A stretch of 64,000 nucleotides of DNA from an uncultured Gemmatimonadales bacterium (GTDB lineage Bacteria; Gemmatimonadota; Gemmatimonadetes; Gemmatimonadales; GWC2-71-9): contig CAWILD010000012.1 of assembly GCA_963836815.1 (NCBI GenBank), positions 691,298 to 755,297 of the forward strand. The letters are read 5' to 3'. Under the pieces are notes generated by a model, which saw only the letters and a list, made by a program, of their open reading frames with translations, was not told the origin of the DNA and did no database searches. The first letter of the stretch is position 1. Each line of letters begins with the position of its first letter. This document shows positions 12,451 to 30,664 of this stretch, piece by piece. The position numbers and the translations under genes are program-made.

Positions 12451-12570
12451 CCTTTCGACAAAGGCACACCCGGCGAAAGCCGGGGCCGCAAAGCCACGGG
12501 TCCTCGCCTCCTCCGCGACGCCGCACTGTTGACGCCACGAAGGACCCTAAGACCGCCGAGCTGCCGAAGG
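12451..12570 (+). ncRNA. c-di-GMP-I (GEMM-I) riboswitch variant, copy 1
   Basis: GGCACACC-CGGC-GAAA-GCCG-GGGCCGCAAAGCCACGGGTC...GACCGCCGAGCTGCC; P1 CCTTTCG/CGAAGG. Confidence 0.8.
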
Positions 12571-12639
12571 CACCGGTGCACCCGCCAGCCCCTATGGCGG
12601 ATTACTTATCGCTCACCCCTGACAAGGAGACTTCGCGCC

Positions 12640-13104
12640 ATGTCCCTCGACGAAAACAAAGCGGTCGTCCGCCGCATCCTGAGTGAGTTCTGGCTGGGCG
12701 GCAAGGTGGGCGTGCTTGATGAGCTTCTCGCCCCAGATTGCGTGAACTACGAGCAGTCCAACCCCGAGCTACGGGGCAAGGAGGCCTGTAAGCAGTGGGC
12801 CGAGGGGGTGCGCCTCGCCAACCGCCAGGGCTTCCCCGACTTCGACGTCGCGATCGAAGACCTCGTGGCCGAGGGCGATCGGGTGGTCAAGCGCTTTGTA
12901 TTCCGCGGCACCCACACGGGCGAGTTTAGTGGGATAGCGCCCACGGGCAAGCGGGTGACAATGCGCGGGATATCGCTCTACCGCATCGTCGACGGCAAAG
13001 TGAAGGAGCTCTACTGGAACGATGACGTCTTCGGGCTCCTGCAACAGCTCGGCGCGATCCCTGCCCCGGGACAGCAGCCGCAGCCAGCCGCCGCCGGGGC
13101 CTAG
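12640..13104 (+). CDS. SnoaL-like ester cyclase
   Basis: ENKAVVRR...FPDF..AIEDLVAEGDRV...GTHTGEFSGIAPTGKRV. Confidence 0.9.
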   Translation: MSLDENKAVVRRILSEFWLGGKVGVLDELLAPDCVNYEQSNPELRGKEACKQWAEGVRLANRQGFPDFDVAIEDLVAEGDRVVKRFVFRGTHTGEFSGIAPTGKRVTMRGISLYRIVDGKVKELYWNDDVFGLLQQLGAIPAPGQQPQPAAAGA

Positions 13105-13194
13105 TACATGTAGAAGGTGGAGGCAGGTATCGGAGCCCCGGCAGAGGCGTCGCCCCGGCACACCCGGCGAAGCTCTCACATCCATCATGGGAGG

Positions 13195-13662
13195 ATGAAC
13201 ATGCGTGTACCCTTCGGCCTGCTGCTTTTCGCCCTCGTAGCTCAAACAGGTACCGCTGCGGGCCAAACTTGGAGCCCGGAGCAACAAGAGATCTGGCGCC
13301 TCGAAGATCAGCAATGGAAGATGGGTGCCGCGAAGGACCTGACGTGGATCGAAACCATGGTTCACCCCAACATCAGCTTCTGGGACAGAGACTTTCCTGC
13401 GCCGCAGAACAAGGCCTCACTGTCGCGATGGGCCAAGTACGGCTCCGCGAGTGGCACAGTCCTGGAGCAGGAGATTTTCCCGATCTCGGCGACGATCACT
13501 GGCAACGTCGCAGTTGCGCACTACCGCTACCGGATTGCGTCCGAGAACTACAAGAAGGAGCGGGAAACTGTGACCGGCCGCTGGACCGATGTGTTCATCA
13601 AGGAAGGCGGGCGCTGGCGCTTCATCACCTGGGCTGGCGGTGACGACCCTAAGGAACAGTGA
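13195..13662 (+). CDS. Secreted NTF2-like (DUF4440) protein
   Basis: Signal peptide; GNVAVAHY...GRWTDVFIKEGGRWRF. Confidence 0.8.
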   Translation: MNMRVPFGLLLFALVAQTGTAAGQTWSPEQQEIWRLEDQQWKMGAAKDLTWIETMVHPNISFWDRDFPAPQNKASLSRWAKYGSASGTVLEQEIFPISATITGNVAVAHYRYRIASENYKKERETVTGRWTDVFIKEGGRWRFITWAGGDDPKEQ

Positions 13663-13873
13663 GAACCGCGCAAGCGCAGCCTAAGCCCGGGACTTTCCGG
13701 CGGAGCTGCGAGGCGGAGTTCGGGCGATAGGGTGCCGACGAGGGTGGGCAGCTTGTAGCCGGACGTGGGGACCACTCCGGACAGGTGATCTCGGAGTCCG
13801 TTGAGGCGGCGGTCCGGATCGTTGATGCCGCCGAGGCCGCTGTCGCAGCACGGCATGCCCCAGGGCGCTAGGG

Positions 13874-14056
13874 GTGCAAGCATCAGAGGATCATCAACGT
13901 TGGGCTCGTGTCCCACCCCATCTTGCCTGGAAGCCCGTGCTCAAACGCCATTCGGAGGGGATCGAGGCGCTACCGGGCTACCTGTGGCTGGAGATGCCGG
14001 GGAAGGTCCGGCACGTCCGCGAGCTTGATTTGGAGTTCACAAACCGGCCGGTGTGA
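13874..14056 (+). pseudogene. Fragment of a recurrent small protein family (RWARVP..LAW / PGY.WL..PGK..HV..LEF)
   Basis: Related pieces at 9279-9341, 10066-10146 and 35575-35800. Confidence 0.5.
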
Positions 14057-14104
14057 CGGGTGACTGGAACACATATCCACTTCTGCAGATCTAGACGGGT
14101 TTCA

Positions 14105-15850: not shown

Positions 15851-15897
15851 CTCCGTGCTTGACAGCCTTTGTACCGTCTCTAAATCAGTCACACCAT

Positions 15898-16026
15898 CCC
15901 TCGACAAAGGCACACCCGGCGAAAGCCGGGGCCGCAAAGCCACGGGTCCTCGCCGCCCTCCGCGACGCCGCACGGGTTACCCCCGCCTGACGCCACGAAG
16001 GACTCCATGACCGCCGAGCTGCCGAA
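15898..16026 (+). ncRNA. c-di-GMP-I riboswitch variant, copy 2
   Basis: Near-identical core to copy 1; TTGACA promoter element at 15859. Confidence 0.8.
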
Positions 16027-16095
16027 CGCGCAGCACAGGGCGTCCGCGGTTAATCCGAAACGCATCCCGTTGAGATCCTCTTCCTCGGGGTCCGC

Positions 16096-16646
16096 ATGCA
16101 TCGTTCCTTCCTCCCCGCTCAGCCGCGCTCGCGCGCGTGCTCGCGCTCGGCTGCGGCGATCCCACGCCTTCCGAACCTACTGAAATTTCCCGGCCTTTCG
16201 GCTTTGCCGCGAGCGCGGCGACGACGCAAATCGGGGGTTGGGTTCTTCGACGCAGTTGCGTGCCCGGCCCCTCCGACCGGGTATGAGGACTTCATCGCGT
16301 ACCCCGGCATCGCGATGACCGGGAGCCTGGAAGGTTGCTGGTACACGAAAGTCGTGACCAGCAGAGATAACGGGACCCCGAGCGGGGTGTACCAGGAGCG
16401 CGGTGAAGAGGTCTTCGTCGGCAGCTTCGATGGCGGGCCCGAGGGGACGTTTACCACGACCTACAATTTCTCGTCTAAGTGGGAACCGGACGTGACTAAC
16501 GGCTCAGAGGTCCGCGGACGCTGCCAGCACCCGATCGTCGCGGGCAGCGGCACCGGTGGATTCGAGGGTGCCACCGGTCGGCTCGACTTCAAAGACGATG
16601 TCGAAACAGGAGATTATTTTGGCGGGGCCATATCAGCCTTCCGTGA
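16096..16646 (+). CDS. Secreted beta-rich lipoprotein (frameshifted N-terminus)
   Basis: LALGC lipobox in a shifted frame; GRCQHPIVAGSGTGGFEGATGRLDF (AOC/dirigent-like barrel style). Confidence 0.6.
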
Positions 16647-16738
16647 CCTCCTGCCGTGGCAGCTGATGAGGTCGATCTCTAGGTAGTCTCCTTCCCTCAC
16701 TGGCCACTTCTCTGACCTCGGAGCCGGGCCACGAGGGA

Positions 16739-16897
16739 TCACTCCTCCCGCCGGTTGACGAGCTCGGGCACGACGTAGGTGCAGCCGTCGCGCCAGACGT
16801 AGCAACCGGCGCGGTGCGGGTGCGGCGTCGAGGTGACGCTGTACCACTTGCGCCCGCGCTTCACGCGGGCACCGAACGGGTACGCGTCAGTCGTCAT
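16739..16897 (-). CDS. Small hypothetical protein, paralogue of 17572-17820
   Basis: Shared PHPHR.GCYVWR.G..YV.PELVN.REE. Confidence 0.55.
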   Translation of the reverse strand: MTTDAYPFGARVKRGRKWYSVTSTPHPHRAGCYVWRDGCTYVVPELVNRREE

Positions 16898-16947
16898 CGG
16901 GAGTGCGCGGAGAACGGCGCCGCTCCCGTACCCCGCCCTTCTTCCGT

Positions 16948-17338
16948 TCAATCGCTGATCAATAGCGGCCGCACAGTCGCCCGCAATTGTTCGGGGGTAA
17001 ACGGCTCTCGCAGGGTGGGCACGTCGGGCGGCAAGCTGTCCGGTATATCGTCGGGAGAATCAAGGTTCTTGACGTACAAAATCACGAGCGTCGGCAGCTC
17101 CTCGCGGACCCGCCGAATAAGCTGAGGCCCGTTCAATCCGGGCATACTGGTGTTGGTGATCGAGGAGATCAATCCTGCGAAGGTGGAGACAGAGTTCAAG
17201 CACGGTAAGTCCGTCGTAGGCTTGAAAGACGCAGTGGTCGTCTTTCCGGAGCGTCCGGACAATCATATCCAATAGCTCTTGATTCCGGTCGGCGCAAACA
17301 ATATGCGCCCCGCTGTGCAGGCGGGAATGCGGCAACAT
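16948..17338 (-). CDS. Aspartate-less single-domain receiver (one frameshift)
   Basis: REC pattern with ITNTSMPG (D to N) and LREPF (K to E). Confidence 0.7.
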
Positions 17339-17571
17339 TGTGGACCTTTGGAACCCGGCAATCCCACAACGGCCAGGAAATGGCAAGGCGAGGAAAGAAC
17401 CTTAGAGGAACGAACTTCTACCACGAATTATAACACCATCTCCTACCAGAGGTGCCCCTTCCGTGCGTCAAGTACCTACTCGCGGAAGTGTGGCGCTCGG
17501 ACGGAGGCCCAAGCGTCCAAACGTACAGGCCAACGGTGATGAAGCCGATGTGCGAGATCAGCGGGGGCGAA

Positions 17572-17820
17572 TCAGGCCATCGCCGGGACGATCACGAAGC
17601 CGGCGACGCGGGGCAAGCCGTCCGGCTCCGGCGGGGGCAGCCCGTGCACGATGCGCTGCTCCTCCCGCTGGTTGACGAGTTCGGGTAGGACGTACACCTG
17701 CCCCGAGCGCCAGACGTAGCAGCCGTGGCGGTGAGGGTGCGGGATCGAGACGACGGTGCGCCATTGGCGCGGCCCCACCCGCACGCGTTGACCGAAGCAA
17801 TACTCGGGCTCACTCGTCAT
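17572..17820 (-). CDS. Small hypothetical protein
   Basis: Paralogue of 16739-16897. Confidence 0.55.
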   Translation of the reverse strand: MTSEPEYCFGQRVRVGPRQWRTVVSIPHPHRHGCYVWRSGQVYVLPELVNQREEQRIVHGLPPPEPDGLPRVAGFVIVPAMA

Positions 17821-17879
17821 CGGGACCACGCGGCGTGCGGCGACGCTCGACCCCCGCCACCGTTGCCGCTGCCGGTCCA

Positions 17880-18268
17880 TTACCCGGGGATCACAAAAGC
17901 GTCGCGGGCGACGAGCTCGCGGCCATTCGACGGGGCTCGAAACGTCGGCATCACCGCCACTGGCGGGTAGACTTCAGCGCGGGCCTCGGCCTCGCTGTAG
18001 CTCATGCCGCCGTAGCGCCCCAACACATCGGCTGCTCGTATCCGGTCCGCGTTCGACACATCGGGCAGCTTGCCGCGCACAATCGCCCGCAGCACCGGAA
18101 TCGCGGCCTCGAAGCCCTGCATGCAGGCTTCGCGTATCGCGGATTTCGGACGGCCACTGCGTCCCGGCTTGCCGCCCAGTTCCCCGGATTCCCCGGCACG
18201 ATCGCCGCGCCGCCTTGCGGGGGACGAACGCGACGGGTCGGGTTTTTAGCCGGGTTTTTTCGCGCCAT
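17880..18268 (-). CDS. Second TerS-like protein (DUF5681-type GNP motif; frameshifted)
   Basis: GNPGN.GGKPGRSGRPKS followed by DRIRAADVLGRYG. Confidence 0.5.
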
Positions 18269-18571
18269 CTGTCAGGTCCTCTCCGGTGATTGCGCCTCGA
18301 TCCATGGGGTCACCGGGGCTCCATAGGGTTACCCGAGTTCCATGGACCTTCCCCGGTGCAGCCTCGGAGTCGAGCATGCCAGTGGGGCAGCGGAAAAATC
18401 CTTGCGCACTCGCGGCCGGATTCCTACCGTTCATACGGCGTCACCTCCAAGCAGAGCGTGATGCTGCTCCACAAGCGAAGAGAAGAGGGACAGGGCGCGC
18501 CCTCCGTCGGCCACGGGGGGCGTCGCACGTGCGGGGGCCAGCTCCACAGGGGCGTCGTGCGTCGGCAGGGC

Positions 18572-18791
18572 TGCGGGACTTTCCGTGGGACTCGGGCCGA
18601 GATACGGCGGGGCACGGCGGGCCATACGGGGGAGTGGGCCGGGGCATCGCGAGGCACCGGGACGCACGCTCCCTTGTGCGCCGCCATAGCCAAGGCTCTT
18701 TTAATCCCTAGGTCGTGGGTTCGAGCCCCACCGCCCTCATAACGACTTACGAGTTGGGGCGTCTCCGCCTGTGGGGACTTCTGTGGGGACT
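18572..18791 (+). other. att junction: tRNA-Lys(TTT) 3' half (18698-18739) with arm-type repeats on both sides
   Basis: CTTTTAA-TCCCTAGGTC-GTGGGTTCGAGCCCCAC-CGCCCTCA; GGGACT direct repeats at 18572-18592 and 18770-18791. Confidence 0.75.
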
Positions 18792-18808
18792 CTACGCCTG
18801 GGTCTAGG

Positions 18809-18940
18809 ATGGGAACCCGTTCCAAGAACAACCCGCCGCGGCGACAGGGGCCAAAGCCCCAGCGCCCAATCCTACCATTGGGTGCCGTCGCATTGACTCT
18901 CAAGAAGGCCCCACCAAAGAAGAAGGGCCGGGGGAAGTAG
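18809..18940 (+). CDS. Possible 43-aa basic peptide
   Basis: MGTRSKNNPPRRQGPKPQRPILPLGAVALTLKKAPPKKKGRGK; ends in the terminator; no clear RBS. Confidence 0.3.
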   Translation: MGTRSKNNPPRRQGPKPQRPILPLGAVALTLKKAPPKKKGRGK

Positions 18941-18952
18941 CCCCCGGCCCTT
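18923..18952. terminator. Intrinsic terminator, probably bidirectional
   Basis: AAGGGCCGGGGG-AAGTAG-CCCCCGGCCCTT perfect 12-bp stem with T-rich tails. Confidence 0.75.
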
Positions 18953-18977
18953 TCACTTGTTCAGCCTGCCGCGGGGA

Positions 18978-19061
18978 TCACCCGCAGGTGCAGGCGCTGG
19001 TCCCGCAGCAACACCCGGTGTCGCAGCACCCCTTGGTGCAGCCGCAAGTGGTCTCCTTCAT
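18978..19061 (-). CDS. Metallothionein-like Cys-rich microprotein (27 aa, 9 Cys)
   Basis: MKETTCGCTKGCCDTGCCCGTSACTCG*; GGAGG 5 nt before ATG; promoter upstream and terminator downstream. Confidence 0.75.
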   Translation of the reverse strand: MKETTCGCTKGCCDTGCCCGTSACTCG

Positions 19062-19099
19062 TCTGGCCTCCCTACGGGGCTGGGCAGCTCCGCACTCCG

Positions 19100-19128
19100 A
19101 AGATATGGTTCAAGAAGTCCGCTATCAA
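19100..19128 (-). promoter_or_regulatory. Sigma70-type promoter for the Cys-rich gene
   Basis: TTGATA-N17-TATCTT on the minus strand. Confidence 0.55.
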
Positions 19129-19181
19129 CCGACTTGCGATCGGTTTCTCACTTCAGCGGACGAGGATGCCAGTTCTCGGCT

Positions 19182-19403
19182 GTGAAGCTGCGCGTGCCGG
19201 ATCTGATGAAGCAGGCGGACATGACCGCCTATCGGCTGGCCGCCGAGAGCAGGGGCCGGATCAGCCAGCGGACGGCATACCGCCCCTCCGTGGGCGAGAA
19301 GGAATCGGTGCGGCTTGAGGAACTGGCGGCGCTCTGCGACGTGTTCGGACTCACGGGCGTGGGCGAGCTGGTTGAGCTGCGGCAGGGGCGAAGGGCGGGA
19401 TGA
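19182..19403 (+). CDS. Cro/XRE HTH repressor, second copy
   Basis: Close paralogue of 8530-8754. Confidence 0.75.
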   Translation: MKLRVPDLMKQADMTAYRLAAESRGRISQRTAYRPSVGEKESVRLEELAALCDVFGLTGVGELVELRQGRRAG

Positions 19404-19499
19404 GCGTGGCCACGATCGGTCAAGACTGCAAGCTTCCTTGAACCGCTTCAGACGAGTCTAAAGTCCGACCATGGCTCTCCAGCCCTGCCGCGAGTGCGG

Positions 19500-19900
19500 A
19501 CAGCCAGCCGCTCCGATTTCTGCTGGCTGACGACCCCGGAGCGGGCAACACCATCATGGCGGGGCTACTGATCAAGGAACTGATCGCGCGCGGCGATCTC
19601 CGGCGCTGCCTGATTGTCTGCCCTGGCAGCCTGGTCGAGCAGTGGCAGGACGAGCTGTACCGGCGCTTTCATCTGCCGTTCGAGATCTTGACGAATGACA
19701 AGCTCGAGGCCGCCCGCAGCGGGAACTGGTTCCTGGAGAACGACCTCGCCATCGCGCGCCTGGACAAGCTGTCTCGCGACGAGGACGTGCAGCAGAAACT
19801 CAGCGCGCCGGACTGCCGATATGACCTCATCGTGTGCGACGAGGCGCACAAGATGTCAGCCACGATTTTCAGTGGCGAACTCAAGCCAACTAAGCGCCCG
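19500..19900 (+). pseudogene. Internal fragment of an SNF2-family helicase
   Basis: RFLLADDPGAGNTIMAGLLIKEL (Walker A Lys replaced), CPGSLVEQWQDEL, DEAHKM; truncated at both ends. Confidence 0.85.
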
Positions 19901-19942
19901 AATCCCCAGCAGGTTGACCGACATGTCTGCTTGGGCGAGAGG

Positions 19943-19983
19943 ACTCTGGATCAGGAGCGTCCTGGTTCGAGCCCAGGAGGGGC
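19943..19983 (+). other. tRNA-Gln(CTG) 3' half (att scar)
   Basis: CTCTGGA-TCAGG-AGCGT-CCTGGTTCGAGCCCAGG-AGGGGC; no D-arm or 5' half. Confidence 0.7.
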
Positions 19984-20110
19984 TTCCTTGTGCGGTTGGT
20001 TCAGAACGGTTTGGGCGAGAAGCGCTCCTGGCCATGCTGAACCCAGCCTTCAGGCGTGTTCACCCAGACTCGCATCGCTCAATCCCTATCTCCGGAAGCG
20101 GCTTCCCCGC

Positions 20111-21871
20111 CTACCTCCGCCTCACCCGCACCGGCCGGGAAAAGGAGGGGACCTGTCTGCTGGGGTCCTGCGCCGAGCCGGCGACACAGCTGGCGAAATA
20201 GGTTTGGGCCTCGCCCACGACCCCGTGGGCATCCGCGCTGTACGACAGCTGGTACTGAGGCGGGCTGGTGCCGGGCACCAGGGTCCCGTTCCCGATGTGC
20301 TCCGGTGCAACGCCGCCGACTTCCTTGTAGAACTCGACTCGATCGACCACCGATGAGCCCTCGCCCTCGCGGGGGTTGACGGTGATCTCCGCCGTGAGAT
20401 CGATGGTGGCCGCATTCGATGGGCTGCTGTACACATCGGTCACGTTATCCACCGGCTGACCCGCCGACGAGGTCATCCTGCAGAATGGTGGCGGAAAGAA
20501 GAACGCCTGCTGCAGGGGCTCGACGACCATCTTCCGCGATGCCACCCGTGCGCCGGTCTCCCCGGCGGGCACGCCCCAGTGGTTGCTCCAGTCGGTTCCC
20601 TGAGTACAGTTCGGCGCCGTGCCGGTCCATCCGGCCTCGCATCCATTGGTGGTAAGATACGACGCGCCCCGCGCATTGTTTTCGCCCTGCCGAACGACGA
20701 TCGTGCTGGTCAGCGGGTCGTTGACGAACACGGTGCTGTAGTTGCCGCCGTGGCTAAACGTCTCCAGCGACAGCCGAAGGAATCCGGGTGACTGGGTCCA
20801 GGCGTCCCTCGCGTTGTTCTCGTAGATCACGCCTCGACTCGCGGCCGCGGCCACCTCGATGTTCCCCTCGACCTTGGTCACTTCACGCCAGTATCTCACC
20901 GGCTCGACGTTCCGATTCTGCCAGATGCCCAGCCTGCCCGCCATCCGCAGGACCGCCGCGCCGTCCAGTCCGTTCCACTTCGCCGATCCGGCGCTTTGGT
21001 GGAATTGCTGGCCATTATCCGTCTCGATGAGTGCCGGACGAACGGGAGATCCCATGCCGGGCTGCTTGATGCCCAGGTCGAAGATGCCGACAAGACTCTG
21101 GCTGCAGGCTCTCTGGACCACGTAGTTCAACAGCGTGTGCCCCACATTGCTGTACTCGTAAATGCTTCCCGGAGGCAGCGCCGGGTCGCTATTCTGCTCG
21201 GACTGGACGCGGGCAATGGTAAACGCATCCTCGGGGTACACGTGGTCGGGGCCGCCACCGTTGGCGATGTCAAAGGCGCGCTGCCAACCAGGATTCTCAT
21301 CCTGACATGTCGTGCTCGAGTTGCCGTAATCACAGATACCACTGGTGTGAGTGGCGAAATGCTCCACGGTGATGTCGGTCCAGGGGTACTCGGTACTCCA
21401 GCGGGCGCCCTCGTCATGCGCCAACCAATTGGCGGCCCGATCCCCGAGCCGGACCCCGCAGCGGCTCATCGCATAGACCAGCGTCGGAGCTCCCAATAGG
21501 CCTTTGGAGGCGGAGTACGCGAAGTACGGCTCGGTCCCGCCCCGGTCGTAGATGATCTTGTCGTTACGAATCACCAGGAACCGCTTGGTATTGTGCTTGG
21601 GATCACTGATAGTGGCCCAGATCTGCTCGAGTGTCGTGGTGCAGCCGAGCTGCAGCGTGCTGCCACACATACCCTGGCTCTCCGGTGTGGCGGAGCCCCA
21701 CTGGAATGGCTCGGCGGGAGCCGAAGGGACGGTGTCCGGGTTGGGCGCCTCAGGCGAGGGTGGAGGCTCGGGCGCCTCAGCCGAGGGTTGAGGCTCGGTC
21801 CCGCACCCCTGCGCCAGCAGAACGAGAGGGATGGCGATGTATCGCAGCGGACGGGGACCGGAGTTGCTCAT
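20111..21871 (-). CDS. Serine hydrolase (beta-lactamase/PBP-like) lipoprotein with a C-terminal Ig-like domain
   Basis: Lipobox AQGC; SASK, HTSG, YSN and HGG motifs. Confidence 0.8.
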   Translation of the reverse strand: MSNSGPRPLRYIAIPLVLLAQGCGTEPQPSAEAPEPPPSPEAPNPDTVPSAPAEPFQWGSATPESQGMCGSTLQLGCTTTLEQIWATISDPKHNTKRFLVIRNDKIIYDRGGTEPYFAYSASKGLLGAPTLVYAMSRCGVRLGDRAANWLAHDEGARWSTEYPWTDITVEHFATHTSGICDYGNSSTTCQDENPGWQRAFDIANGGGPDHVYPEDAFTIARVQSEQNSDPALPPGSIYEYSNVGHTLLNYVVQRACSQSLVGIFDLGIKQPGMGSPVRPALIETDNGQQFHQSAGSAKWNGLDGAAVLRMAGRLGIWQNRNVEPVRYWREVTKVEGNIEVAAAASRGVIYENNARDAWTQSPGFLRLSLETFSHGGNYSTVFVNDPLTSTIVVRQGENNARGASYLTTNGCEAGWTGTAPNCTQGTDWSNHWGVPAGETGARVASRKMVVEPLQQAFFFPPPFCRMTSSAGQPVDNVTDVYSSPSNAATIDLTAEITVNPREGEGSSVVDRVEFYKEVGGVAPEHIGNGTLVPGTSPPQYQLSYSADAHGVVGEAQTYFASCVAGSAQDPSRQVPSFSRPVRVRRR

Positions 21872-22004
21872 ATTTGCTAGGGTAGACCCGGCCCCCGTAG
21901 CTGTCAACCAGATTGTGGATTAGCCGCATGCACCCGCTTTGCGGGTACCCGACGCGGATGAACGCAGATAAGACAGAAGCCAGGAAGGCTAAGAATTGTT
22001 GGTT

Positions 22005-23209
22005 ATGATGAACCGATCATGGAGTACCCTTGCAGGCCGACTATTCCTCGCCACCGTCGTGAGCCTGCTAACGGGTGCTCTGGCCTGCAGCGACACCGGG
22101 GACCAAGACGCGCCAGAGCCGGAGCCGCCTCCGGAGCTGCCGGAACTGCCTCCGGACGCGCGGATTCAGTGGGATCCGCAAGCGCAGATGGTGCAGGTCG
22201 CCGGCACGAGTGGCTGCGACTCGTGGACCCGACCTGGGCGCCGGATGGAAACGTCTATACCGCGGTGGGCGACTGCCGGCCGATGGGAGTGCCGCTCAAG
22301 CTCGGTATGGGATTCGGTCGGATCACCGGCGACGAGGCATACGGCGTCTCGTTCACTCCGGTGCCGACTGGGGACCCCGCTGACTGGGATGATGCGGCTC
22401 TTGGCGCAGGCGTGGAGGCGCTGGGCGACGGCCCTGCCAGTGAGAAGGCTGCAGGCATGCTGCACGTCGACGGCCGCTTGTGGTACTGGATCCGAAACAT
22501 CAGCTCGACCGGTACCGGCGTGCGGCTCAAGTTCACCGACAATTCCGGCTCAGCCGTACCCACATTCACCTGGGTCGACTGGAGTCTGCCGGATGTGGGC
22601 TACGCCTCGTTCGTGCAGTATGGACAAGGGTACGCCGGCGGGCCGTCCGATTATGTGTATGCCGTCGTTCCGATGCGCTCGGGCGCGGCCGGCAGCGTGA
22701 GCAACAGTGCCTATGACGTGGTGCCCGGGTTTACCCTGCTCCGCGGATCGCGGATCGATCTCATGGCTCAAGCGAACTGGCAGTACTTCTGCGGCGGCGC
22801 GGGCAGTCCCGCCTGGTGCACGTCACTTACGTCAGCGACCCCAATCTTCCTCGATCCGAACACGCAGTTCACCCCACGGGTCGGCATGAGCTGGAATCCG
22901 GGACTCGGCCGGTTCATGCTCTCGCTGGTCTACGACCCCACGCCTAGCATTCCTGATGCCGGCACCCGGTTCCACGGTGGATTGATGGTCCTGGTCTCGC
23001 CCGATCTCTGGGGGCCCTGGCAACTGGTGTTCTCCAGCGGCAGCAGCGCTTGGCCCGGCGGCACCAGCACCAGTGGATGCGGTCCGACCAACTGGGGCTC
23101 GGGCGAGCGGGCCGACATTCCTACCAAATACATGAGTGCCGACGGAAAGGCTTTTTTCCTGTTCAGCTCGGGCGGGGACTGTCTCTCGATCGCGCGCGGT
23201 GTTTTGTGA
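22005..23209 (+). CDS. DUF4185-like secreted lipoprotein (frameshifted)
   Basis: ALAC lipobox; PTWAPDGNVYTAVGD, SFVQYGQGY, WNPGLGRF, IPTKYMSADGK. Confidence 0.65.
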
Positions 23210-23347
23210 GCGGCTTCGCCGGGTGGACCCGTCACTTCGAAGCCGGATCGGCCCTCAGCGATCATCGTCCTTTCCCCGATCATTGTCCTTCTTCTCATCG
23301 TCGATCCTGATCTGTCCGCGAACCTCACCGCCAGGGAATCGCTTTGA

Positions 23348-23572
23348 ATGGAGATTGACGTACGTTGCGCCATGCAGGATCGCGCGGAGCTAAGCGCCCT
23401 CGCCGAAACGGCACATGGCTACCGCTTCTATTTCGGCATTTACGTGCGCAGCGTCGGCCGCTTCACGCCGGTCTACATGGCCCTGATCGACCCGTTCCGC
23501 AAGCTGGTGGTATATCCGTCACTCCTACGCACCGTGCGCGCGACTTGGAACCAGACCTTCGGCACAGCCTGA
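23348..23572 (+). pseudogene. DUF2867-like C-terminal fragment
   Basis: YMALIDPFRKLVVYPSLLR motif. Confidence 0.45.
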
Positions 23573-23832
23573 AGGCGCCGCGCGGGCAGGGAGCTTGGGG
23601 GCGGGTACTGCTTGGGAGGCCGCACTGGGATCTTCTCGGATCCGAGCAATACGTGCGCACCAGCCGCCGGGGTAGGGGAGGGAAGCTAGGCGCCCCGGTG
23701 GGATCGAGCCGCGAGCGGATTTGTCACCATCGTTGTCACACATCAGGTCAACGACGGTCAGCGCGGGCCAACGTGTGGGGCCATTCCGGGAGAGAATGAG
23801 CGAGGGTGAACGGCGGTCAACGGGCGGCGGCG

Positions 23833-23876
23833 GCTTTGCAAGCAGGGGGTCGCCGGTTTGATCCCGGTCCGCTCCA
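23833..23876 (+). other. tRNA-Ala(TGC) 3' half (att scar)
   Basis: GC-TTTGCAA-GCAGG-GGGTC-GCCGGTTTGATCCCGGT-CCGCTCCA; T-loop degenerate; TG(C/T)TACGGTTT x2 at 23941-23963. Confidence 0.72.
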
Positions 23877-23954
23877 TCAAGGTAAGTCGTAGACCTGCAG
23901 CAGGATTGGAAGGACCAGTGCCGTAGTGGCTCGGGTGAGCTGCTACGGTTTGTG

Positions 23955-24200
23955 TTACGGTTTGGTCCCGATGGACCGCACCTTCCGCGTCTCGCTCACC
24001 GCAGCCAACATGGTCGCGTCATCAGTCTGCGTGTAGCACCGGAGGAGGGTGGCCGTCGAGCGCCAGCCGCCGGCCTCGGCCACATCCTTGAGGGGGAGGT
24101 GTTTCCTGGCCGTCGCCCAGGCGCGGCGGTAGGCGTGGAAGTCGCTGCCGTCGAGCGGGGCAAGCGCCGCCGCGGCATCGGGATACTCACCGATCTGGAG
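23955..24200 (-). pseudogene. Tyrosine integrase C-terminal remnant facing the tRNA-Ala fragment
   Basis: FHAYRRAWAT...AGGWRS..TLLRCY. Confidence 0.75.
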
Positions 24201-24415
24201 ACTACTGAGGCGGACTCCGCGGGAAACGAGGCCATGAGTTGAGCAGAGGGGCAGGGAAGGGAACGGACTCACCCGGACGCTGTGGGAAAGGGCGTGCTCG
24301 GAATTTGGGCGCTGAGACCTATACGAAACGGGGGCACGCGGTGAAGGTCGAGGGTCCCCTGCACTAAGGTATTGCTTGCCCGCGGCGGTACCACTCCCTA
24401 TCTCTGCCTTACCAT

Positions 24416-24546
24416 CCCTTTCGACAAAGGCACACCCGGCAAAAGCCGGGGCCGCCAAGCCACGGGTCCTCGCCTCCTCCGCGACGCCGCACGGTAACCC
24501 CGCCAGACGCCCCGAAGGACCCCCACGACCGCCGAGCTGCCGAAGG
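24416..24546 (+). ncRNA. c-di-GMP-I riboswitch variant, copy 3 (partly degenerate)
   Basis: Same core; tetraloop GAAA changed to AAAA and junction GCAAAG changed to GCCAAG. Confidence 0.7.
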
Positions 24547-24587
24547 TCCGGCGTCCTGAACCCCGGACGACTAATTCATTTCTTGTC

Positions 24588-25234
24588 ATGAGGAAGGCCC
24601 CTAGGCGCTCGCTTCGCCTTGCTGCGCCACTCGTCGCGGCCGCTCTGGCTATTTCTGTACCGAGCGGACTGGCCCGAGTGATGTTGCACGACCCACCCCG
24701 CCGGTTTCGTATGACTTCATCAACGGTCCCGGCTCGCCGGGCAACTCCGGCATCTTCAGAGTCCAGGACAACTACTTTTTCGGGGCCTTCCTTGACGCGA
24801 GTTCAGGCTTGGTCAGCATCCAGGGCCTGGAGAATACAGTCGCTGACTTGTGTGCCGACCTCGGCGAGTTTGCTCTCGTGGACTTCCAGCTCAAGCCGCA
24901 CAACGCCGGCGAGATCAACTCGCTGCTCGTCGCCCTGACCTCGCCCATGCAGGTCGTCGCGCTGCCGGCCGAGCCCTCCGGGGATTTCTGTGAGGACTTA
25001 AGCGGCGCGCCGGTGCTCTACAGCGGAACGGTGGCGCTCCACCGCACCGATAACAACTTCACCGAGACTGGCTCGGAAGGTGGGCGGGCGAACTCCTTCG
25101 GGTGGTCGGCGCATGGGGTGCTGGATGACCTGGTGAACGGCGGGCAGGTCCACTACAGCGAAACCCTTCGGGTTGTCGTCAACCCGCAGACGGGTGAGTT
25201 CAGGGAACTGGTCGCGAACATCCGACTGCACTAA
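24588..25234 (+). CDS. Secreted beta-rich protein (frameshifted N-terminus)
   Basis: Signal-like N-terminus; resembles 30700-31215. Confidence 0.6.
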
Positions 25235-25239
25235 CAGGA

Positions 25240-25770
25240 ATGTGGAGCGCGAGGCGCGCAGTAAGGCCCGTTCGAGCGGGCTCGGCGAAATCGACTTCTA
25301 CCGGGTGCTCGACTCCCCGCCCTCGCCGTGGCGTTCGTATTTCGTCACGCTGGCGCTCACGGGGTTGCGGCTCGAAGACCTCTCCGAGCTTCAGCCCGAG
25401 AGCCTCGGCCATGAGGCGCCGAGCGATCTGCATGAAGGACTCGAAGAGCCCGACCGGAGTTGGCACGACCTACGTCGCCGAAAAGTTCTGGCCCTGGGTC
25501 ATGGCGGCGGTGCCAGTGCCCGTCACGCAGCGGTATCTGCGGGCTCACTGGGATGCGGTGGTAGACCGGACGGGATTGCAGGAGGTAAGCGTCACAGAGC
25601 TTCGGCGGCTCAGGACCAAGCTCCTGGAAGAGGAGAAGGAACGTCCCCCGGTCCGACTACTCGATGATGATGCCCGGCAAGAGGCGCAGCTGCTCGCGCA
25701 ATTTCTCCCTGCGCTGGCGCTCACAGAGCATGAGGGTCGGAGGCTTCTGCTGCGGATAGTCAGGGGCTGA
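25240..25770 (+). pseudogene. Degenerate tyrosine-recombinase-like gene
   Basis: LALTGLRLEDL, SKS and ELRR; no recognisable catalytic Tyr region. Confidence 0.5.
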
Positions 25771-25992
25771 ACGGCTGGCTTGCCAGCCCCAATGTTGGTC
25801 TCCAGGAGGCTCGCGACGCTTCGCCAGAGCCCGTCCGAGGCACGTTCTTACCTGAGGGGCAGCGAGACCAGCCTGGTTTTCGCACAACGTTCAGCTTGGA
25901 ACCTGGTTGCAACGTCACGCCGTCAGTCCCAAGTGTGGAGATAGAGTTGGGTACCGGCTGTGACGCGATGCGCAGCTGGGTACGCGGCCGAT

Positions 25993-26028
25993 CAGGGGAG
26001 CTCGGAGATCCGAGCTCCCCTGGTCTTT
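25993..26028 (+). terminator. Perfect 13-bp hairpin, terminator-like
   Basis: CAGGGGAGCTCGG-AGAT-CCGAGCTCCCCTG-GTCTTT. Confidence 0.55.
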
Positions 26029-26479
26029 GCCGCGGCCCAACCTGGTGTGCCCGGGAAGGAACTGCTCGGCGGCACAGAGTGCGGTGCCCGGGGAGAGCAG
26101 CGGCCCTGCCTCCATCCTCAAGTGTTCAGGGCTGCTAAACTCGGTAGGCTCGCCGAGCCCGGCGTTGACCCTCCTCGATCCTTGCGACCTAGCGCCCCGG
26201 GCCGTGCCGTACTGATACAGCCGCCTCAGAGGCATCGACGATCCGGACTGCCGCCTCACCGGACTCCGAGATCACCTGTCCGGAATGGTCGCCACGTCCG
26301 GCCACGAGCTGGCCGGCGACGAGGGCGACGAGTTGCGCGGGAGAAAGGTGCGCCATACAGATGGCCCCTTCCATGAGCAACTTTGACGATCGGTTGACTC
26401 AGTATAGCAGCGGTCACTTTTCAGGAGTCAAGGGCAATGGAGGGCGTTCTTCCCCGGCACAGAACCAACCGCCAGCGCC

Positions 26480-26884
26480 TCAGGCACTCGAGCTCGTTCC
26501 CTGGAGAGGACGGAGGACGTCCGCGAGGGTTCCGATCAGCGTGTCGGGGTCGAACGGTTTGGGGACGAGCGGCCCCGGGAGCTGGCCGCCGTATTCGGTC
26601 GGCGAGCCAAACCCGCTCACAAAGACCACCGGAATCTCGGGATACATCTGCCGAAGCTGCCTGCTGAGGGACGCGCCATCGACGGGCTCCATCTGCACGT
26701 CCGTGACGAGAGCGGCCGGTGGACTCGGGAGCTTGGCGGCCAAGGCCAGAGCACTGAGCCCATCGGGGGCCGGGTGGACCTGGTACCCGGCCTCCGCCAG
26801 CGCCCGCTGCATCAGGGACAGCACCACGGGCTCGTCGTCCACCACGAGGACCAGCGGACCGGAGACCGGCTCGACCGCGCTCAT
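26480..26884 (-). CDS. Single-domain response regulator (canonical)
   Basis: VVDDE, VTDVQM, VSG, KPF. Confidence 0.88.
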   Translation of the reverse strand: MSAVEPVSGPLVLVVDDEPVVLSLMQRALAEAGYQVHPAPDGLSALALAAKLPSPPAALVTDVQMEPVDGASLSRQLRQMYPEIPVVFVSGFGSPTEYGGQLPGPLVPKPFDPDTLIGTLADVLRPLQGTSSSA

Positions 26885-27382
26885 GGATCGCCTGGGATGA
26901 AAAGGGGTGACGGGAATGTACCTGAGCCGGGAGGTTCGGGAAGGGACTGCAGATGTCTGCAGGGCAAGACGGCCGCCCGATCGGACAGCCGTCTCGTTGG
27001 CAGCCGTGCGCCGCCACCGAGTCAGCTCTTGTCCTTCACTTTCTCGAAATCCTTCAATTCCCACGACTTATCGAACAGGGCCTTTTCGGTCCGTAGAAGC
27101 GGAACATTCCGAACCAGGGCTTGCCGGGCGCGGCGTGTCGATCCAATTGGTCTCCTTGCAAGACGGTGCCGCCGGTGCCGGCCAGCTTGCTGGCCTTGCA
27201 CCGCTCCCGCTGCTTGCTTGACGCTCGGTAGAGTGCATGGTCGCAGTATAGCGGCGGTCACGTTTCGGGAGTCAAGGTATGGGTCGCATGGTCGTTCCGG
27301 GTACCGTGACTGTCAACCAGAGTGCGCCATTCCTCCCGGGCCAGCTGTGCCTGCACGGGGGCCCAACCCTGATAAGGCATCC

Positions 27383-27532
27383 TTAGTGCGGGCGGCTTCG
27401 AACGCGCCACATGGCTAGGAAGAGACCGATTACCGCCATGATGATCGCAGCCGTCACGTTCCCGGCCCTGTAGATCTGGTAGGCCATGAAGAGCCAGAAG
27501 GCCAGTATGGCCAGAATAACAAATCCTGGCAT
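27383..27532 (-). CDS. 49-aa two-helix membrane peptide
   Basis: MPGFVILAILAFWLFMAYQIYRAGNVTAAIIMAVIGLFLAMWRVRSRPH; GGAG upstream. Confidence 0.6.
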   Translation of the reverse strand: MPGFVILAILAFWLFMAYQIYRAGNVTAAIIMAVIGLFLAMWRVRSRPH

Positions 27533-27580
27533 CGTTTGACGCTCCGTTGGTCCTGTGATTTGCAGTAATAGCCGCGCGGA

Positions 27581-27850
27581 TCACGCTCGAGGCCCCAGTC
27601 GCCGGTCCTCCTCGAGAGCCTTTCGTCCGGCCGGTGTCAGATCGCACGGCCCAGCGCCGAGGTAGCGCCCGTCCTCGCGCTGCATGATCCGACTCTCCGC
27701 CAGGCGGATCAGCCCGCGATCCCGGAGGGAGCGCAGCTGCTGGATGACCGCATCGAAACTCTCACCGGGTCGGGGCGCACTGCCTGGACGGAAGGTGTGC
27801 TCGCCGGCCTCGACTCGGACGAGGAGGAGGTATGTCGGCGTCGGGCAGAT
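27581..27850 (-). CDS. Small hypothetical protein (wHTH-like; start uncertain)
   Basis: LRSLRDRGLI...LTPAGRKAL pattern. Confidence 0.5.
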   Translation of the reverse strand: MCPTPTYLLLVRVEAGEHTFRPGSAPRPGESFDAVIQQLRSLRDRGLIRLAESRIMQREDGRYLGAGPCDLTPAGRKALEEDRRLGPRA

Positions 27851-28023
27851 GGTGTCCCCGTTGACCGGGCATTTGACCTCAGTCCATTTCAGGCCGCGGG
27901 GGACTCCCGCTGGGCGAGAGCGCACAGCCCGAAGACGAAGCCTTCCGGCGAGCCTCCTAATACTGCGCGGCGACCCCTACCTTTCGCCGAGGCCAGACAA
28001 CGTGGGCTAACTGGGGGATCGAG

Positions 28024-28272
28024 CTACTCTGGGGCGGTATCCTCTAGACGTACTCGCCGCCGACTGGTGGGGCGCTGGTGGCTACCGCGAAAATCGAAAT
28101 GGGCAGGATCGAGTGCGCGCTCTTTGCTGATGAACCGCGCATTCGGGCGACCCAGGATGTTGGCCATAACACGGTCAACCAATACGGCTGCCGGCTCCCA
28201 CACGCCCGGCGTAAGGTACGGATAGAGCCCAGCGAACTCGGGGCGGAGCCGCGCCTCCCGTTCAGAGCGCAT
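28024..28272 (-). CDS. Small hypothetical protein
   Basis: REARLRPEFAGLYPYLTPGVWEPAA...HFDFRG; GAGGA RBS. Confidence 0.6.
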   Translation of the reverse strand: MRSEREARLRPEFAGLYPYLTPGVWEPAAVLVDRVMANILGRPNARFISKERALDPAHFDFRGSHQRPTSRRRVRLEDTAPE

Positions 28273-28344
28273 CAGCGATCCTCGGCTCGGGTGCGCAGGG
28301 GCCGTTGCCCCAGGGCACGCGCGCGAGCGCACCACCCCGGTGGG

Positions 28345-28842
28345 TCATGGCCCGGATCCGGACCGTGCCTCGCGATCACTCGCGGTCGCCTGGGGTATGC
28401 CGCCGGCCTCAAAGGGTTGAGCGCCGCCACGCGAGAGTAGTTCCGCGACGGCGACCCGGAGTTCCTCGGCCGTGAACGGCTCGCGCAGGATCGGCACATC
28501 GGGGGGCAGCCGGCTTTCGATCTCGGGCGTGGAGCGGCCGGCGTTGGCGAGGTACATGACCGGCAGGGTGGGCTGTTGATGGCGCAGCTGGCGGATCAGG
28601 TCGATTCCGGCCACACCATGCACTCTGGTATTGCTGACGACGAGGTGGCACTCGTCCAGTGCGAAGGCCAGTTCGACGGCGGAGAGGCCGTCATAGGCGT
28701 GAAATACCGCGTGGCCGTCGTCCCGCAGCGTCTGGGTCACAAGCGCGACCACGCTGGGGTCCTCGTCGGCAACAAGGATGTGTCGGCAGTTAAAGGCGGG
28801 GGAGGGGGAGTGCTCATGGCGAACCTTGGACCCGGGAGACAT
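28345..28842 (-). CDS. Aspartate-less single-domain receiver
   Basis: ILVADED...VVSNTRV (D to N)...LREPF (K to E). Confidence 0.8.
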   Translation of the reverse strand: MSPGSKVRHEHSPSPAFNCRHILVADEDPSVVALVTQTLRDDGHAVFHAYDGLSAVELAFALDECHLVVSNTRVHGVAGIDLIRQLRHQQPTLPVMYLANAGRSTPEIESRLPPDVPILREPFTAEELRVAVAELLSRGGAQPFEAGGIPQATASDREARSGSGP

Positions 28843-29006
28843 CCGGGAATGGCAGGCAGCGGAGGATCAGCTATCTGAGTATACCCCCAGGTACATCGCC
28901 ATGCTGACATTGACCCCCGCCGGAGTCCGCAGTGCCGGTGCTGATTACGATGCCGTCTCTCGCAGGAGTTGGCGGACGCCTCCGCCAATTGCTCCAGCCT
29001 GCCAGG

Positions 29007-29246
29007 TCAGTGGCGCAGGGTCGTCTCGACCCCGCCTACTTGCCCTTCTCTCAGCTCTAAATCGTCCCGCTGCCACGCCACGACACCGTGCGGGGTCCGG
29101 AGCCAGACATAGAACGGCTGCGGCGGCTGCCTGGTCTCGAGGTCGTACCAGATGCCCGGCGCAAGTTCCGGTGGGAGGCCACGCCCACCGGTTCGCAGTC
29201 GTCCTTGGGGCGCACGGCGCGAGTGTCGTCGTTCGGTACCTCTCAC
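29007..29246 (-). CDS. Small hypothetical protein
   Basis: PGIWY...YVWLRTPHG...DLELRE; weak resemblance to the family at 13874. Confidence 0.45.
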   Translation of the reverse strand: MRGTERRHSRRAPQGRLRTGGRGLPPELAPGIWYDLETRQPPQPFYVWLRTPHGVVAWQRDDLELREGQVGGVETTLRH

Positions 29247-29341
29247 CCTGACCTCCCCTGAGACGTTGGTAGCGAATAGCTGCGTGGCCGCGTGCGGCGT
29301 GAGGTCGCGGTGACTTCAGGACTTCCCAAGTACGCGGGAGC

Positions 29342-29761
29342 CTATGCCGTTTCCTTTGAGCCTCGGGTGTCGCGACGCCGGAGCCCGAGCAAGCGATGGA
29401 CGGTGGTTCGAAGTACCTCCGGTGCATACGCATTCGGCGTCATGGGATGGACGGATGCACCATGGGGGGTCGGGGGGGCCTGCGTGGAGAAGAAGAGCAG
29501 CGGCGGATGATGTTGTGCGCGAGCCAGATTCTCGAGTAAGGCGTGCCCCTCGAGATAGGTCACGGTGATGTTCGTGATGATAAGATCGACCGGAAGGTCA
29601 AGCCCCATTACAAGGCTGATCGCGGTCCGGCAGTCTCGTGCTGCCAGCACGCGGCACCCGTCCTGGTGCAGCGTATCAGTCAGGCCCGATCGGACGCCTT
29701 CATCGCCTTCGACAATGACGACGAGGGGTCGGTCCGACGGAAGTAGGGAGCCGTGCGCCAT
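29342..29761 (-). CDS. Degenerate aspartate-less receiver
   Basis: VVIVEGD...VDLIITNI (D to N); no KP motif. Confidence 0.65.
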   Translation of the reverse strand: MAHGSLLPSDRPLVVIVEGDEGVRSGLTDTLHQDGCRVLAARDCRTAISLVMGLDLPVDLIITNITVTYLEGHALLENLARAQHHPPLLFFSTQAPPTPHGASVHPMTPNAYAPEVLRTTVHRLLGLRRRDTRGSKETA

Positions 29762-29996
29762 GTATCCACTCGCCACGACGGAGCATCTATTTGAGGCAGG
29801 GCCCTTACACTGGCACACGTGCTGCCGACCGTCAAGGGGGTGAAGTCGTCAACCAGGACCCGCACCACGTTCTTGACAGCCTAAGCGCCACCCCGTAGTT
29901 CTGCTACAATCTTTCCCCTGCGTTCCGTGGGCCAATACTGAGATGCGGATGGATGGCGAACACGAGTTGCCTGCCTCCGCCTAAACCGAAGATCTC

Positions 29997-30374
29997 ATGA
30001 CTTTGGGGCAGTCGCGTAAGCAGACGGTGTTGCTGGTAGAGGACGACGCAATGCTCCGCAGCATCTTGGCACAGACGCTGGCTGACGAGGGCTACGCTGT
30101 CCTCACGGCGGAGGACGGCGAACCGGCCTTGGCCATCGCCAGCACGTTGGAGGGACAACTTGGCCTTGTCGTGACCGACATCCGGCTGCCCGGCATGAAC
30201 GGCTTGGAACTCGCCGACCACCTTGCCTGCCTCGAGGCTCCACCTCCCGTCCTGTTCATCTCGGGCGTTAAAGCTGACCAGAACGTGTCCGGTCCACTGT
30301 TGGCCAAGCCGTTCGGGCCGAGTGCCTTCCTCGAGCAAGTTGCCCGCCTGCTTCCGCGGGCTCAGCATCACTAG
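29997..30374 (+). CDS. Single-domain response regulator (canonical)
   Basis: LVEDD, VTDIRLPGMNG, ISG, KPF. Confidence 0.88.
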   Translation: MTLGQSRKQTVLLVEDDAMLRSILAQTLADEGYAVLTAEDGEPALAIASTLEGQLGLVVTDIRLPGMNGLELADHLACLEAPPPVLFISGVKADQNVSGPLLAKPFGPSAFLEQVARLLPRAQHH

Positions 30375-30549
30375 TTTGCCTTCTTGGTCGGTCACCAGCG
30401 GACGGCCAGCCCGACAAGCCGGAGCACTAGCCTGGCACAACCGCGAGTGATGCGACAAGCACTCGGCGCAGGGCAGGCGGCCGCCAGTCCTCATAATGCC
30501 GGCCCGGCTTGACGGCCCCTGTACCGCGTCTTATCTCAGGTCCTACCAT

Positions 30550-30664
30550 CCCTCGATAAAGGCACCCGGCGAAAGCCGGGCCGCACGCCACGGGTCCTCG
30601 CCTCCTCCGGGACACCTTCCATCGACGCCCCGAAGGACCCTAAGACCGCCGAGCCGCCGAAGGG
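30550..30664 (+). ncRNA. c-di-GMP-I riboswitch variant, copy 4 (degenerate)
   Basis: Core recognisable with small deletions; TTGACG-N17-TATCTC promoter just upstream. Confidence 0.6.

Follow-up and report, generated by a model that had tools for sequence, protein, structure and literature searches.

This analysis concerns a group of riboswitch leaders in a 64,000-nucleotide (nt) stretch of DNA from an uncultured Gemmatimonadales bacterium (contig CAWILD010000012.1), which at its full length is called the window here. An initial annotation, made from the letters alone, had reported four variants of the class-I cyclic di-GMP (c-di-GMP-I, or GEMM-I) riboswitch at 12451, 15898, 24416, and 30550. 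Rfam covariance models find a member of clan CL00126 at each of these places, and all four RNAs are class-I c-di-GMP aptamers (Table 1). The class is among the best studied of all riboswitches, and the tip of its P3 helix is normally a short tetraloop receptor. Each window copy carries at this tip an insert of 47-60 nt, and Rfam leaves 36-57 bases unmatched in the P3 terminal loop. No description of this insert was found in literature searches on c-di-GMP-I riboswitches, Gemmatimonadota, and the pyrimidine-rich CCUCCUCC tract that the insert contains. The insert-bearing P3 appears to be an undescribed structural subtype of a known riboswitch class.

Rfam was run in two ways, on the whole window at gathering thresholds and on 10-34 kb in E-value mode. 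Copies 1-3 reach the gathering score. Copy 4 falls short of it and is seen in E-value mode only, at 34 bits (E 1.3e-4). In the E-value-mode scan of 10-34 kb, no Rfam family outside clan CL00126 matches the copies. A covariance model, R1, was built from the four window copies, so that copy 4's R1 score is that of a seed member. Deletions have shortened the P2 internal loop and J2/3 of copy 4, which also has G:G at one position of the candidate helix P3b within the insert; it is eroded and may be dead. The remnant announced near 13156-13172 is an exact 15-mer, GGCACACCCGGCGAA, from the J1/2-P2 5' strand, which lies between a SnoaL-like and a DUF4440 gene with no further aptamer parts around it. 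As candidates for a fifth window copy, the next R1 matches are partial (57073-57132 on the minus strand, E 0.12, and another at E 0.81) and were treated as chance.

Table 1. Riboswitch copies and other features in window coordinates (R1, covariance model seeded with the four window copies; GA, gathering threshold; SD, Shine-Dalgarno sequence; ORF, open reading frame).
Feature	Positions	Strand	Details
Copy 1 aptamer	12454..12569	+	P1-P2-P3; RF03167 68.6 bits (GA 59); R1 154.6 bits
Copy 2 aptamer	15899..16027	+	RF01051 48.8 bits (GA 35), match 15899-16026; RF03167 55 bits; R1 138.2
Copy 3 aptamer	24419..24545	+	P2 loop AAAA; RF01051 38.1 bits, match 24419-24544; R1 139.7
Copy 4 aptamer	30552..30662	+	Divergent; RF03167 34 bits, E 1.3e-4, below GA; R1 121.4
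Copy 1 insert	12503..12550	+	P3a CCUCG/CGAAGG, 8-nt C-rich loop, GCGAC/GACGC, variable tip, GGACCC-UAA 3' strand
Copy 2 insert	15949-16008	+	Four-way alignment
Copy 3 insert	24469-24526	+	Four-way alignment
Copy 4 insert	30597-30643	+	Four-way alignment
Copy 1 second hairpin	12582..12610	+	CCGCCA...TGGCGG (12582-12600) then ATTACTTATC; terminator-like
Promoter-like site before copy 2	15859..15886	+	TTGACA-16 nt (with GTACC)-TAAATC
Promoter-like site before copy 3	24376..24404	+	TTGCCC-17 nt (with GGTACC)-TATCTC
Promoter-like site before copy 4	30509..30537	+	TTGACG-17 nt (with GTACC)-TATCTC
Copy 1 gene	12640..13104	+	SnoaL-like (Pfam SnoaL 3.7e-34); SD AAGGAG 12 nt before ATG
Copy 2 gene	16096..16686	+	196 aa; weakly DUF3224-like (Pfam 5.6e-4, below cut-off; Protein Atlas lead)
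Copy 3 gene	24588..25234	+	No known family; signal peptide and body in different frames, frameshift ~24650-24690
ORF after copy 4	30670..31215	+	Without start codon and SD after the aptamer
Aptamer remnant	13157..13171	+	Exact 15-mer of J1/2-P2 5' strand
tRNA gene	2168-2240	+	Rfam 61.1 bits

Relatives were sought in species-representative genomes with a degenerate pattern from the 5' half of the insert, which returned at least 119 loci, and R1 was then run on 119 loci. Full-length R1 matches in 26 of these give at least 28 further insert-bearing copies (E 1e-37 to 1e-11), mostly in Gemmatimonadales metagenome-assembled genomes (MAGs), which bears out the proposal of a lineage-restricted subtype whose insert is conserved elsewhere. 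The other 93 loci, mostly Actinomycetota, are without a full-length match and are chance matches to the pattern. The four window copies and 28 copies among the matches listed make up a 32-sequence set (alignment A3). By label, these 28 comprise 20 from Gemmatimonadota MAGs, six from four Gammaproteobacteria/Pseudomonadota MAGs, one from Actinomycetota, and one from Chloroflexota; MAG labels are possibly wrong, and this taxonomic range is a lower bound. The subtype is centred on Gemmatimonadales. One relative (L092) is syntenic with copy 2, with 75% identity over 383 nt that include 235 nt upstream. On 20 of the loci, Rfam at gathering thresholds reports 17 riboswitches (seven RF03167 and ten RF01051), so standard pipelines already annotate such RNAs. 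The local clustering seen in the window recurs in two other genomes, where insert-bearing riboswitches stand about 1.1 kb apart (L059:1448-1581 and 2521-2644; L028:374-503 and 1433-1575). Each L059 copy is followed by a small lipoprotein gene, and the ORFs called after the L028 copies are without a signal peptide.

The canonical fold is well supported across the 32 sequences. It pairs 92.8% of cells and has ten pairs changed on both sides, a number reached by none of 500 shuffles and far above all slid controls, in an alignment fitted to the covariance model, which favours this fold. P2 gives the clearest covariation (CG/UA, GC/AU), with four to five compensatory cells at each of the pairs 29:53, 30:52, and 31:51. 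In P3, pair 71:143 is GC in 17 sequences, GU in 12, and AU in three, without mismatches. The interhelical P2-P3 bulge pair (columns 58/145) is C:G in 30 of 32, the others being one gap and one C:U. The P2 loop reads GAAA in 20 sequences, AAAA in four, CAAA in three, UAAA in two, and GGAA in one, and its last three A are kept in 29-30 of 32.

In the Vc2 aptamer, G20, A47, and C92 contact the ligand, and the interhelical pair is termed 'universally conserved' (PMC4744006, in excerpt). The G20 equivalent (column 19) is G in 25 sequences, A in five, U in one, and a gap in one; the A47 equivalent (column 61) is A in 29 and C in three; and the C92 equivalent (column 155) is C in 31. Copies 1 and 2 read G, A, C at these positions, copy 3 reads G, C, C, and copy 4 reads G, an ambiguous base, and C. 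The GEMM-I core with G at the G20 equivalent, as initially annotated, is thus present in all four window copies, and this G fits the preference for c-di-GMP over 3'3'-cyclic GMP-AMP (cGAMP) claimed with it, given the contact residues listed in that excerpt. Since the three-helix junction and the ligand pocket are canonical, c-di-GMP is the expected ligand of copies 1 and 2. Some relatives have A at the G20 column, with AAGAGC for AAAGGC (L041:1452-1575, L013:1440-1575, L036:1448-1582, L112:248-373, and L111:247-385), and L038 has U. A change of G20 to A is linked to sensing of 3'3'-cGAMP, that is, to a retuned ligand, and the insert-bearing subtype may include cGAMP sensors.

The insert has a constant order distal to the GUC/GAC pairs of P3, namely P3a, an internal loop, the candidate helix P3b, a tip, and GGACCC-n-AA. 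P3a (CCUCG/CGAAGG, with one bulged A) is nearly invariant and is paired in 97% of cells. The internal loop above it is asymmetric, with eight pyrimidine-rich bases on one side and two on the other. P3b, GCGAC(G)/(C)GACGC with a central A.A, is kept as tentative only; it can pair in 95% of cells and shows no covariation, and it occurs in the minimum free energy (MFE) structure of nine of the 32. The tip varies from about 3 to 30 nt between fixed flanks, which gives this predicted element the look of a real hairpin. On the return strand, the 9 nt of GGACCC-n-AA are bulged in the canonical fold. Four-way alignments bear out the description of a conserved insert in place of the usual P3 receptor helix. 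The quoted anti-Shine-Dalgarno-like tract, CCTCCTCC, is present in copies 1 (12507-12514), 3, and 4, but copy 2 reads CCGCCCTCC. The C-rich octamer is not enriched in the window (six found against 5.2 expected), and it matters through its conserved position and not its frequency. In the six copies that escaped selection by the search pattern, the loop reads CCUCCUCC three times and CCGCCCUCC, CCUUCUCC, and CCUCCUCU once each.

The 3' half of the insert, which the search pattern did not force, is near-invariant. Columns 120-125 are conserved in 30-32 of the 32 sequences and A139 in all of them. The Pseudomonadota-labelled copies keep it too, although their P2 has undergone compensatory change, and this argues for a sequence-specific role. 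Recent spread or gene conversion could also leave such conservation, with the insert as a neutral passenger. This would fit the lack of covariation in the insert, the paralogue clusters (four copies in 18 kb of the window and pairs spaced by about 1.1 kb in L028 and L059), and the likeness of the promoter spacers. However, the Pseudomonadota-labelled copies combine a diverged, compensated P2 with a nearly identical insert 3' half, the flanks outside the unit cannot be aligned, and tips of very different length sit between flanks that are fixed. Recent spread is therefore a very improbable explanation, and the conservation of the insert calls for a function. P1 (CCCUCG/CGAAGGG; for example 30546-30557 with 30657-30664) and P3a (30596-30601 with 30630-30636) have nearly the same sequence and the same bulged A. 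The two may cross-pair, and partial internal duplication is a possible origin of the insert.

The function we favour is that of a competitor strand inside the aptamer, and from the sequences we infer a switch of the following kind. Each leader would have a promoter of its own, with transcription probably beginning near P1. The switching element would be the 3' strand of the aptamer, made up of the P3 3' strand and the P1 3' strand (GACCGCCGAGCUGCC). In the ligand-free RNA, a complementary segment immediately 3' of the aptamer would capture this strand. The resulting hairpin would be a terminator in many relatives, and binding of c-di-GMP would block termination, making an ON switch. Once the canonical 3' strand is withdrawn, the GGACCC of the insert would take over GGGUC(C) of the P3 5' strand, and through this three-strand exchange the insert would stabilise the ligand-free fold. 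Taken as a whole, with GEMM-I leaders, a 3'-strand platform, and strand exchange in the insert, this account is judged somewhat probable.

The P3 5' strand GGGUC(C) has two possible partners, the canonical 3' strand GAC-CG-CCG and the insert segment GGACCC. The alternative helix (69-73:132-137) can pair in 96% of cells, and the substitutions at columns 136/137 are all C to U. When P3 is folded in isolation, the alternative helix forms in 23 of 32 sequences and the canonical one in five; in folds of the full leaders, the complete alternative helix forms in 12 of 32 and canonical P3 in none. Both homology and the covariation at 71:143 speak for canonical P3, and the two pairings are therefore read as the ligand-bound and ligand-free states.

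An expression platform was scored as a compact hairpin of at least eight pairs that uses the aptamer 3' strand, and its tail as U-rich with at least five U in the next 10 nt. Such a hairpin occurs in 16 of the 32 leaders, ten of them with a U-rich tail. Many relatives have the reverse complement of this 3' strand downstream of P1; in L028 and L053, for example, CGCCGAGCUGCC-GAAAG-GGCAGCUCGGCG forms a perfect 12-bp stem followed by a U run. A ligand-stabilised P1/P3 would exclude such a terminator, which, as read from sequence, points to an ON switch. In four leaders that have no U tail (L002, L072, copy 2, and L092), the Shine-Dalgarno (SD) region (CGGAGGUC, CUCGGGGUC) complements the P3 3' strand, which points to sequestration of the SD by that strand. 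The direction of regulation is less clear in the window copies, of which 1 and 2 have a platform hairpin without a U tail, copy 3 a seven-pair version, and copy 4 only a long-range one.

Several observations weigh against the proposed switch. Because the search pattern dictated the 5' half of the insert, conservation of that half among the fetched loci is uninformative, and only six copies are unbiased for it (the four window copies, L028:374, and L059:2521). Covariation had been proposed as a check on homologues, and it upholds the canonical fold through P2, but among the insert pairs none has changes on both sides in the 32 sequences. At 71:135, the three sequences with A71 give an A:C mismatch in the alternative pairing, although in L053 a fourth base restores the pair with its A71. 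A U-rich tail is found in only 10 of 32 leaders and in none of the four window copies. In copy 2, both partner strands could pair with the SD region, which would also allow an OFF reading. Lastly, the ligand-bound fold lies 10-42 kcal/mol above the MFE, a gap that is dominated by loop penalties, mainly reflects the limits of the energy model, and is not used as evidence. An internal competitor strand combined with a 3'-strand terminator or sequestor is nevertheless the best-supported proposal.

The insert could instead be architecture only, a lineage-specific replacement of the P3 tetraloop receptor and tip that aids folding through docking of the P2 loop and plays no part in switching, with the GGACCC complementarity incidental. 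In sequence, P2 keeps its NAAA loop, and P3 lacks the model's canonical receptor sequence and has the insert in its place. Retention of the last three A of the P2 loop leads one to expect a docking site, the bulge guCUAAg that serves as receptor in the Rfam consensus is missing, and the 9-nt 3' bulge with its invariant A139 stands at the helical level of the usual receptor. A natural variety of such receptors is documented (PMC11571812, in excerpt). A receptor, however, needs about a dozen bases, far fewer than the insert supplies. In addition, the distal C-rich loop and GACGCC segments are conserved although they are out of P2's reach, and substitutions in GGACCC are limited to those compatible with wobble pairing. 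A purely architectural role is thus rather unlikely.

The initial annotation had proposed that the embedded CCUCCUCC tract controls translation as an anti-SD, masking the ribosome-binding site in cis in one ligand state. A CUCC-containing pyrimidine tract is present in all six copies outside pattern selection, where it sits in the asymmetric 8-nt versus 2-nt internal loop, and the SDs downstream are mostly GGAGG. Complementarity extends to 8 bp in L013 and in L010 and to 7 bp in L065 and L033, and in L028 and L053 about 10 bp of the tract can pair with a G-rich box right after the terminator. CCUCC, however, pairs with any GGAGG, the SDs of copy 2 and L092 are of the GGGG type, and the tract is equalled in pyrimidine content by the 5' flank of P1, whose CUCCUU in copy 1 matches the SD AAGGAG over 6 bp, whereas the insert reaches 5 bp. 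Ten of the 32 leaders use terminators, and the recurrent downstream partner in the relatives is the aptamer 3' strand, in a hairpin or terminator. When the C-rich segment was paired with the 33 nt around each start codon, the median duplex energy was -17.35 kcal/mol for 22 led genes versus -20.7 for 16 controls (one-sided Mann-Whitney, p 0.99), so start regions of led genes pair no better than controls. This result is a weak negative and not a disproof, as the controls are few and are window genes, all of a single genome, chosen for having an SD. Masking of the ribosome-binding site by the tract is improbable, and the claim is not supported by these results.

Across the leaders, a consistent G-rich partner of the C-rich loop was not found; only L028 and L053 have one. 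In these two (L028:374-503, L053:565-694), the box GGGGAGGCGA follows the terminator U run about 40 nt 3' of the aptamer and complements UCGCCU(C/U)CUCC of the insert over about 10 bp, and the pairing survives a C-to-U change in L028 as G.U. A more elaborate version makes the insert a second functional module. In it, the state of the aptamer would set the GGACCC pairing and hence the exposure of the CCUCCUCC loop. In leaders of the terminator type, low c-di-GMP would free a terminated RNA of ~150-170 nt whose anti-SD-like loop is exposed, and this RNA might act in trans on ribosome-binding sites, in the manner proposed for the Cuckoo/CcsR small RNAs (sRNAs). The leader would then double as a cis switch and an sRNA gene dependent on c-di-GMP. 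We consider this dual role distinctly improbable, and the competitor strand remains the function preferred here.

Candidate promoters for such leaders can be read in the sequence before copies 2-4, with TATCTC or TAAATC as the -10 elements, as initially described. A consensus promoter scan, which requires T at the last -10 position, flagged none of the three sites. The four copies resemble one another from a TTGAC box of -35 type to some 10-20 nt past P1, and outside these limits the sequences cannot be aligned. A TTGAC box lies within 80 nt upstream of 23 of 31 copies, and TTGAC-N5-9-GnACC occurs in 14 of 31. The idea of a promoter-riboswitch cassette thus stands insofar as a conserved unit from the -35 box to just past P1 precedes unrelated genes. 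As to its travelling, no terminal repeats or intact mobility genes were found bounding the window units, and the sole recombinase signal comes from a weakly matching C-terminal fragment that lies upstream of copy 3 (~24017-24218, minus strand, E 4.6e-4, below the cut-off). We regard the promoter-aptamer unit as reused before many genes and the 'travelling cassette' as a hypothesis. An exact TTGACA-N6-GGTACC also occurs on the minus strand at 27300-27316, upstream of a receiver-domain ORF (26483-27064, minus strand), with no aptamer downstream.

Genes do follow the copies, although the claim that each copy heads a cargo gene needs qualification, since copy 3 is followed by a frameshifted gene and copy 4 by an ORF with neither a start codon nor an SD. 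A DUF4440 gene follows the SnoaL-like gene of copy 1. By comparison with the N-terminus encoded at L092, a lipoprotein-type signal peptide lies in a different frame near the start of the copy 2 gene. The copy 3 protein has nothing usable in Protein Atlas, and the ORF after copy 4 is its weak paralogue (BLASTP E 9e-4, 40% over 68 aa). The out-of-frame signal peptides after copies 2 and 3 (16096-16250, 24588-24700) reflect either pseudogenes or assembly indels. In the relatives, the led genes are mutually unrelated. They encode PAP2, RCC1-repeat, beta-helix, BNR-repeat, ChuX-like, TIR-TPR, SnoaL, and epoxide hydrolase proteins as well as small proteins, and many start with lipoprotein-type signal peptides. 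Diverse led genes, often with signal peptides, are the classic GEMM picture.

The surrounding region, from 12 to 35 kb, is a patchwork of SNF2, protein-kinase, and recombinase fragments with four receiver-domain ORFs. Between the copies, 16700-31800 also holds a helix-turn-helix protein and a beta-lactamase-fold protein. A repeat family unrelated to the riboswitches consists of a 127-nt inverted repeat (87%, 13746-13872 and 26188-26314), a promoter-like box TTGACT-17-TA(G/T)ACT (10026-10059, with 26401-26434 and ~27250-27285 on the minus strand), and a 39-nt direct repeat in three copies (10085-10123, 13895-13933, and 35590-35628). This second family has no Rfam match and could be another shared leader or small RNA.

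When some 50 added bases stay fixed across many species while P2 covaries, a regulatory strand or a specific contact is the usual reason. Should the insert prove to be a competitor strand or an anti-SD or sRNA module, it would represent a compact natural aptamer with a built-in second function, useful for engineered switches. The led genes also sketch for the first time a c-di-GMP regulon of Gemmatimonadales, soil bacteria that have received little study, and most of it consists of small lipoproteins and repeat-domain surface proteins. The results also show that the Rfam GGC-variant label reaches RNAs without the variant-defining base.

This label belongs to c-di-GMP-I-GGC (RF03167), where copy 1 and riboswitches in seven of the 20 loci score best and pass the gathering threshold, with a core near its consensus. 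The RF03167 consensus has G where RF01051 has A, at the A47 position, which is the only difference between the two in the alignments obtained and a mismatch to RF03167 in the window copies; in the present set, G occurs there in none of 32 sequences, against A in 29 and C in three. The RNAs assigned to RF03167 above gathering with A in this column are window 12454-12569, L069, L059, L065, L053, L076, L028, and L033. Because no sequence has G at the A47 column, the label fits copy 1 poorly, and for insert-bearing RNAs it is probably a mis-assignment. The letters GGC presumably stand for positions 20, 47, and 92. The main text of the 2017 Nucleic Acids Research (NAR) paper makes no mention of the GGC variant.

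The riboswitches for c-AMP-GMP (3'3'-cGAMP), or GEMM-Ib, share the same fold, and the insert-bearing set includes five of 32 sequences with A at the G20 column. Unlike GEMM-Ib, all four window copies have G there. Rare GEMM-I variants do sense c-AMP-GMP (PMC7266159, in excerpt). The exposed CCUCCUCC-type tract resembles the CCUCCUCCC loops of the Cuckoo/CcsR sRNAs (PMC4615179, in excerpt). However, those are stand-alone sRNAs with the motif in hairpin loops, whereas the tract here lies in an internal loop within a riboswitch aptamer, and the E-value-mode scan of 10-34 kb found no covariance-model relation of the copies to CcsR. A CcsR1 match elsewhere (32665-32738, plus strand) scores 20.8 bits (gathering score 65.3; E 0.49), contains no CCTCCTCC, and is probably noise.

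The closest relative remains RF01051, as represented by Vc2 of Vibrio cholerae, with which the window RNAs share the P1-P2-P3 junction, the G20/A47/C92 equivalents, the interhelical C:G pair, and a GAAA-type P2 loop. As in the c-di-GMP-I class generally, they form the 5' leaders of diverse, often secreted or membrane proteins (PMC4744006 and PMC7266159, both in excerpt). They differ from it in two respects. The first base of the P2 loop is not always G, and the P3 tip bears the near-fixed insert, which puts 56-57 bases where the model has 14-18 positions.

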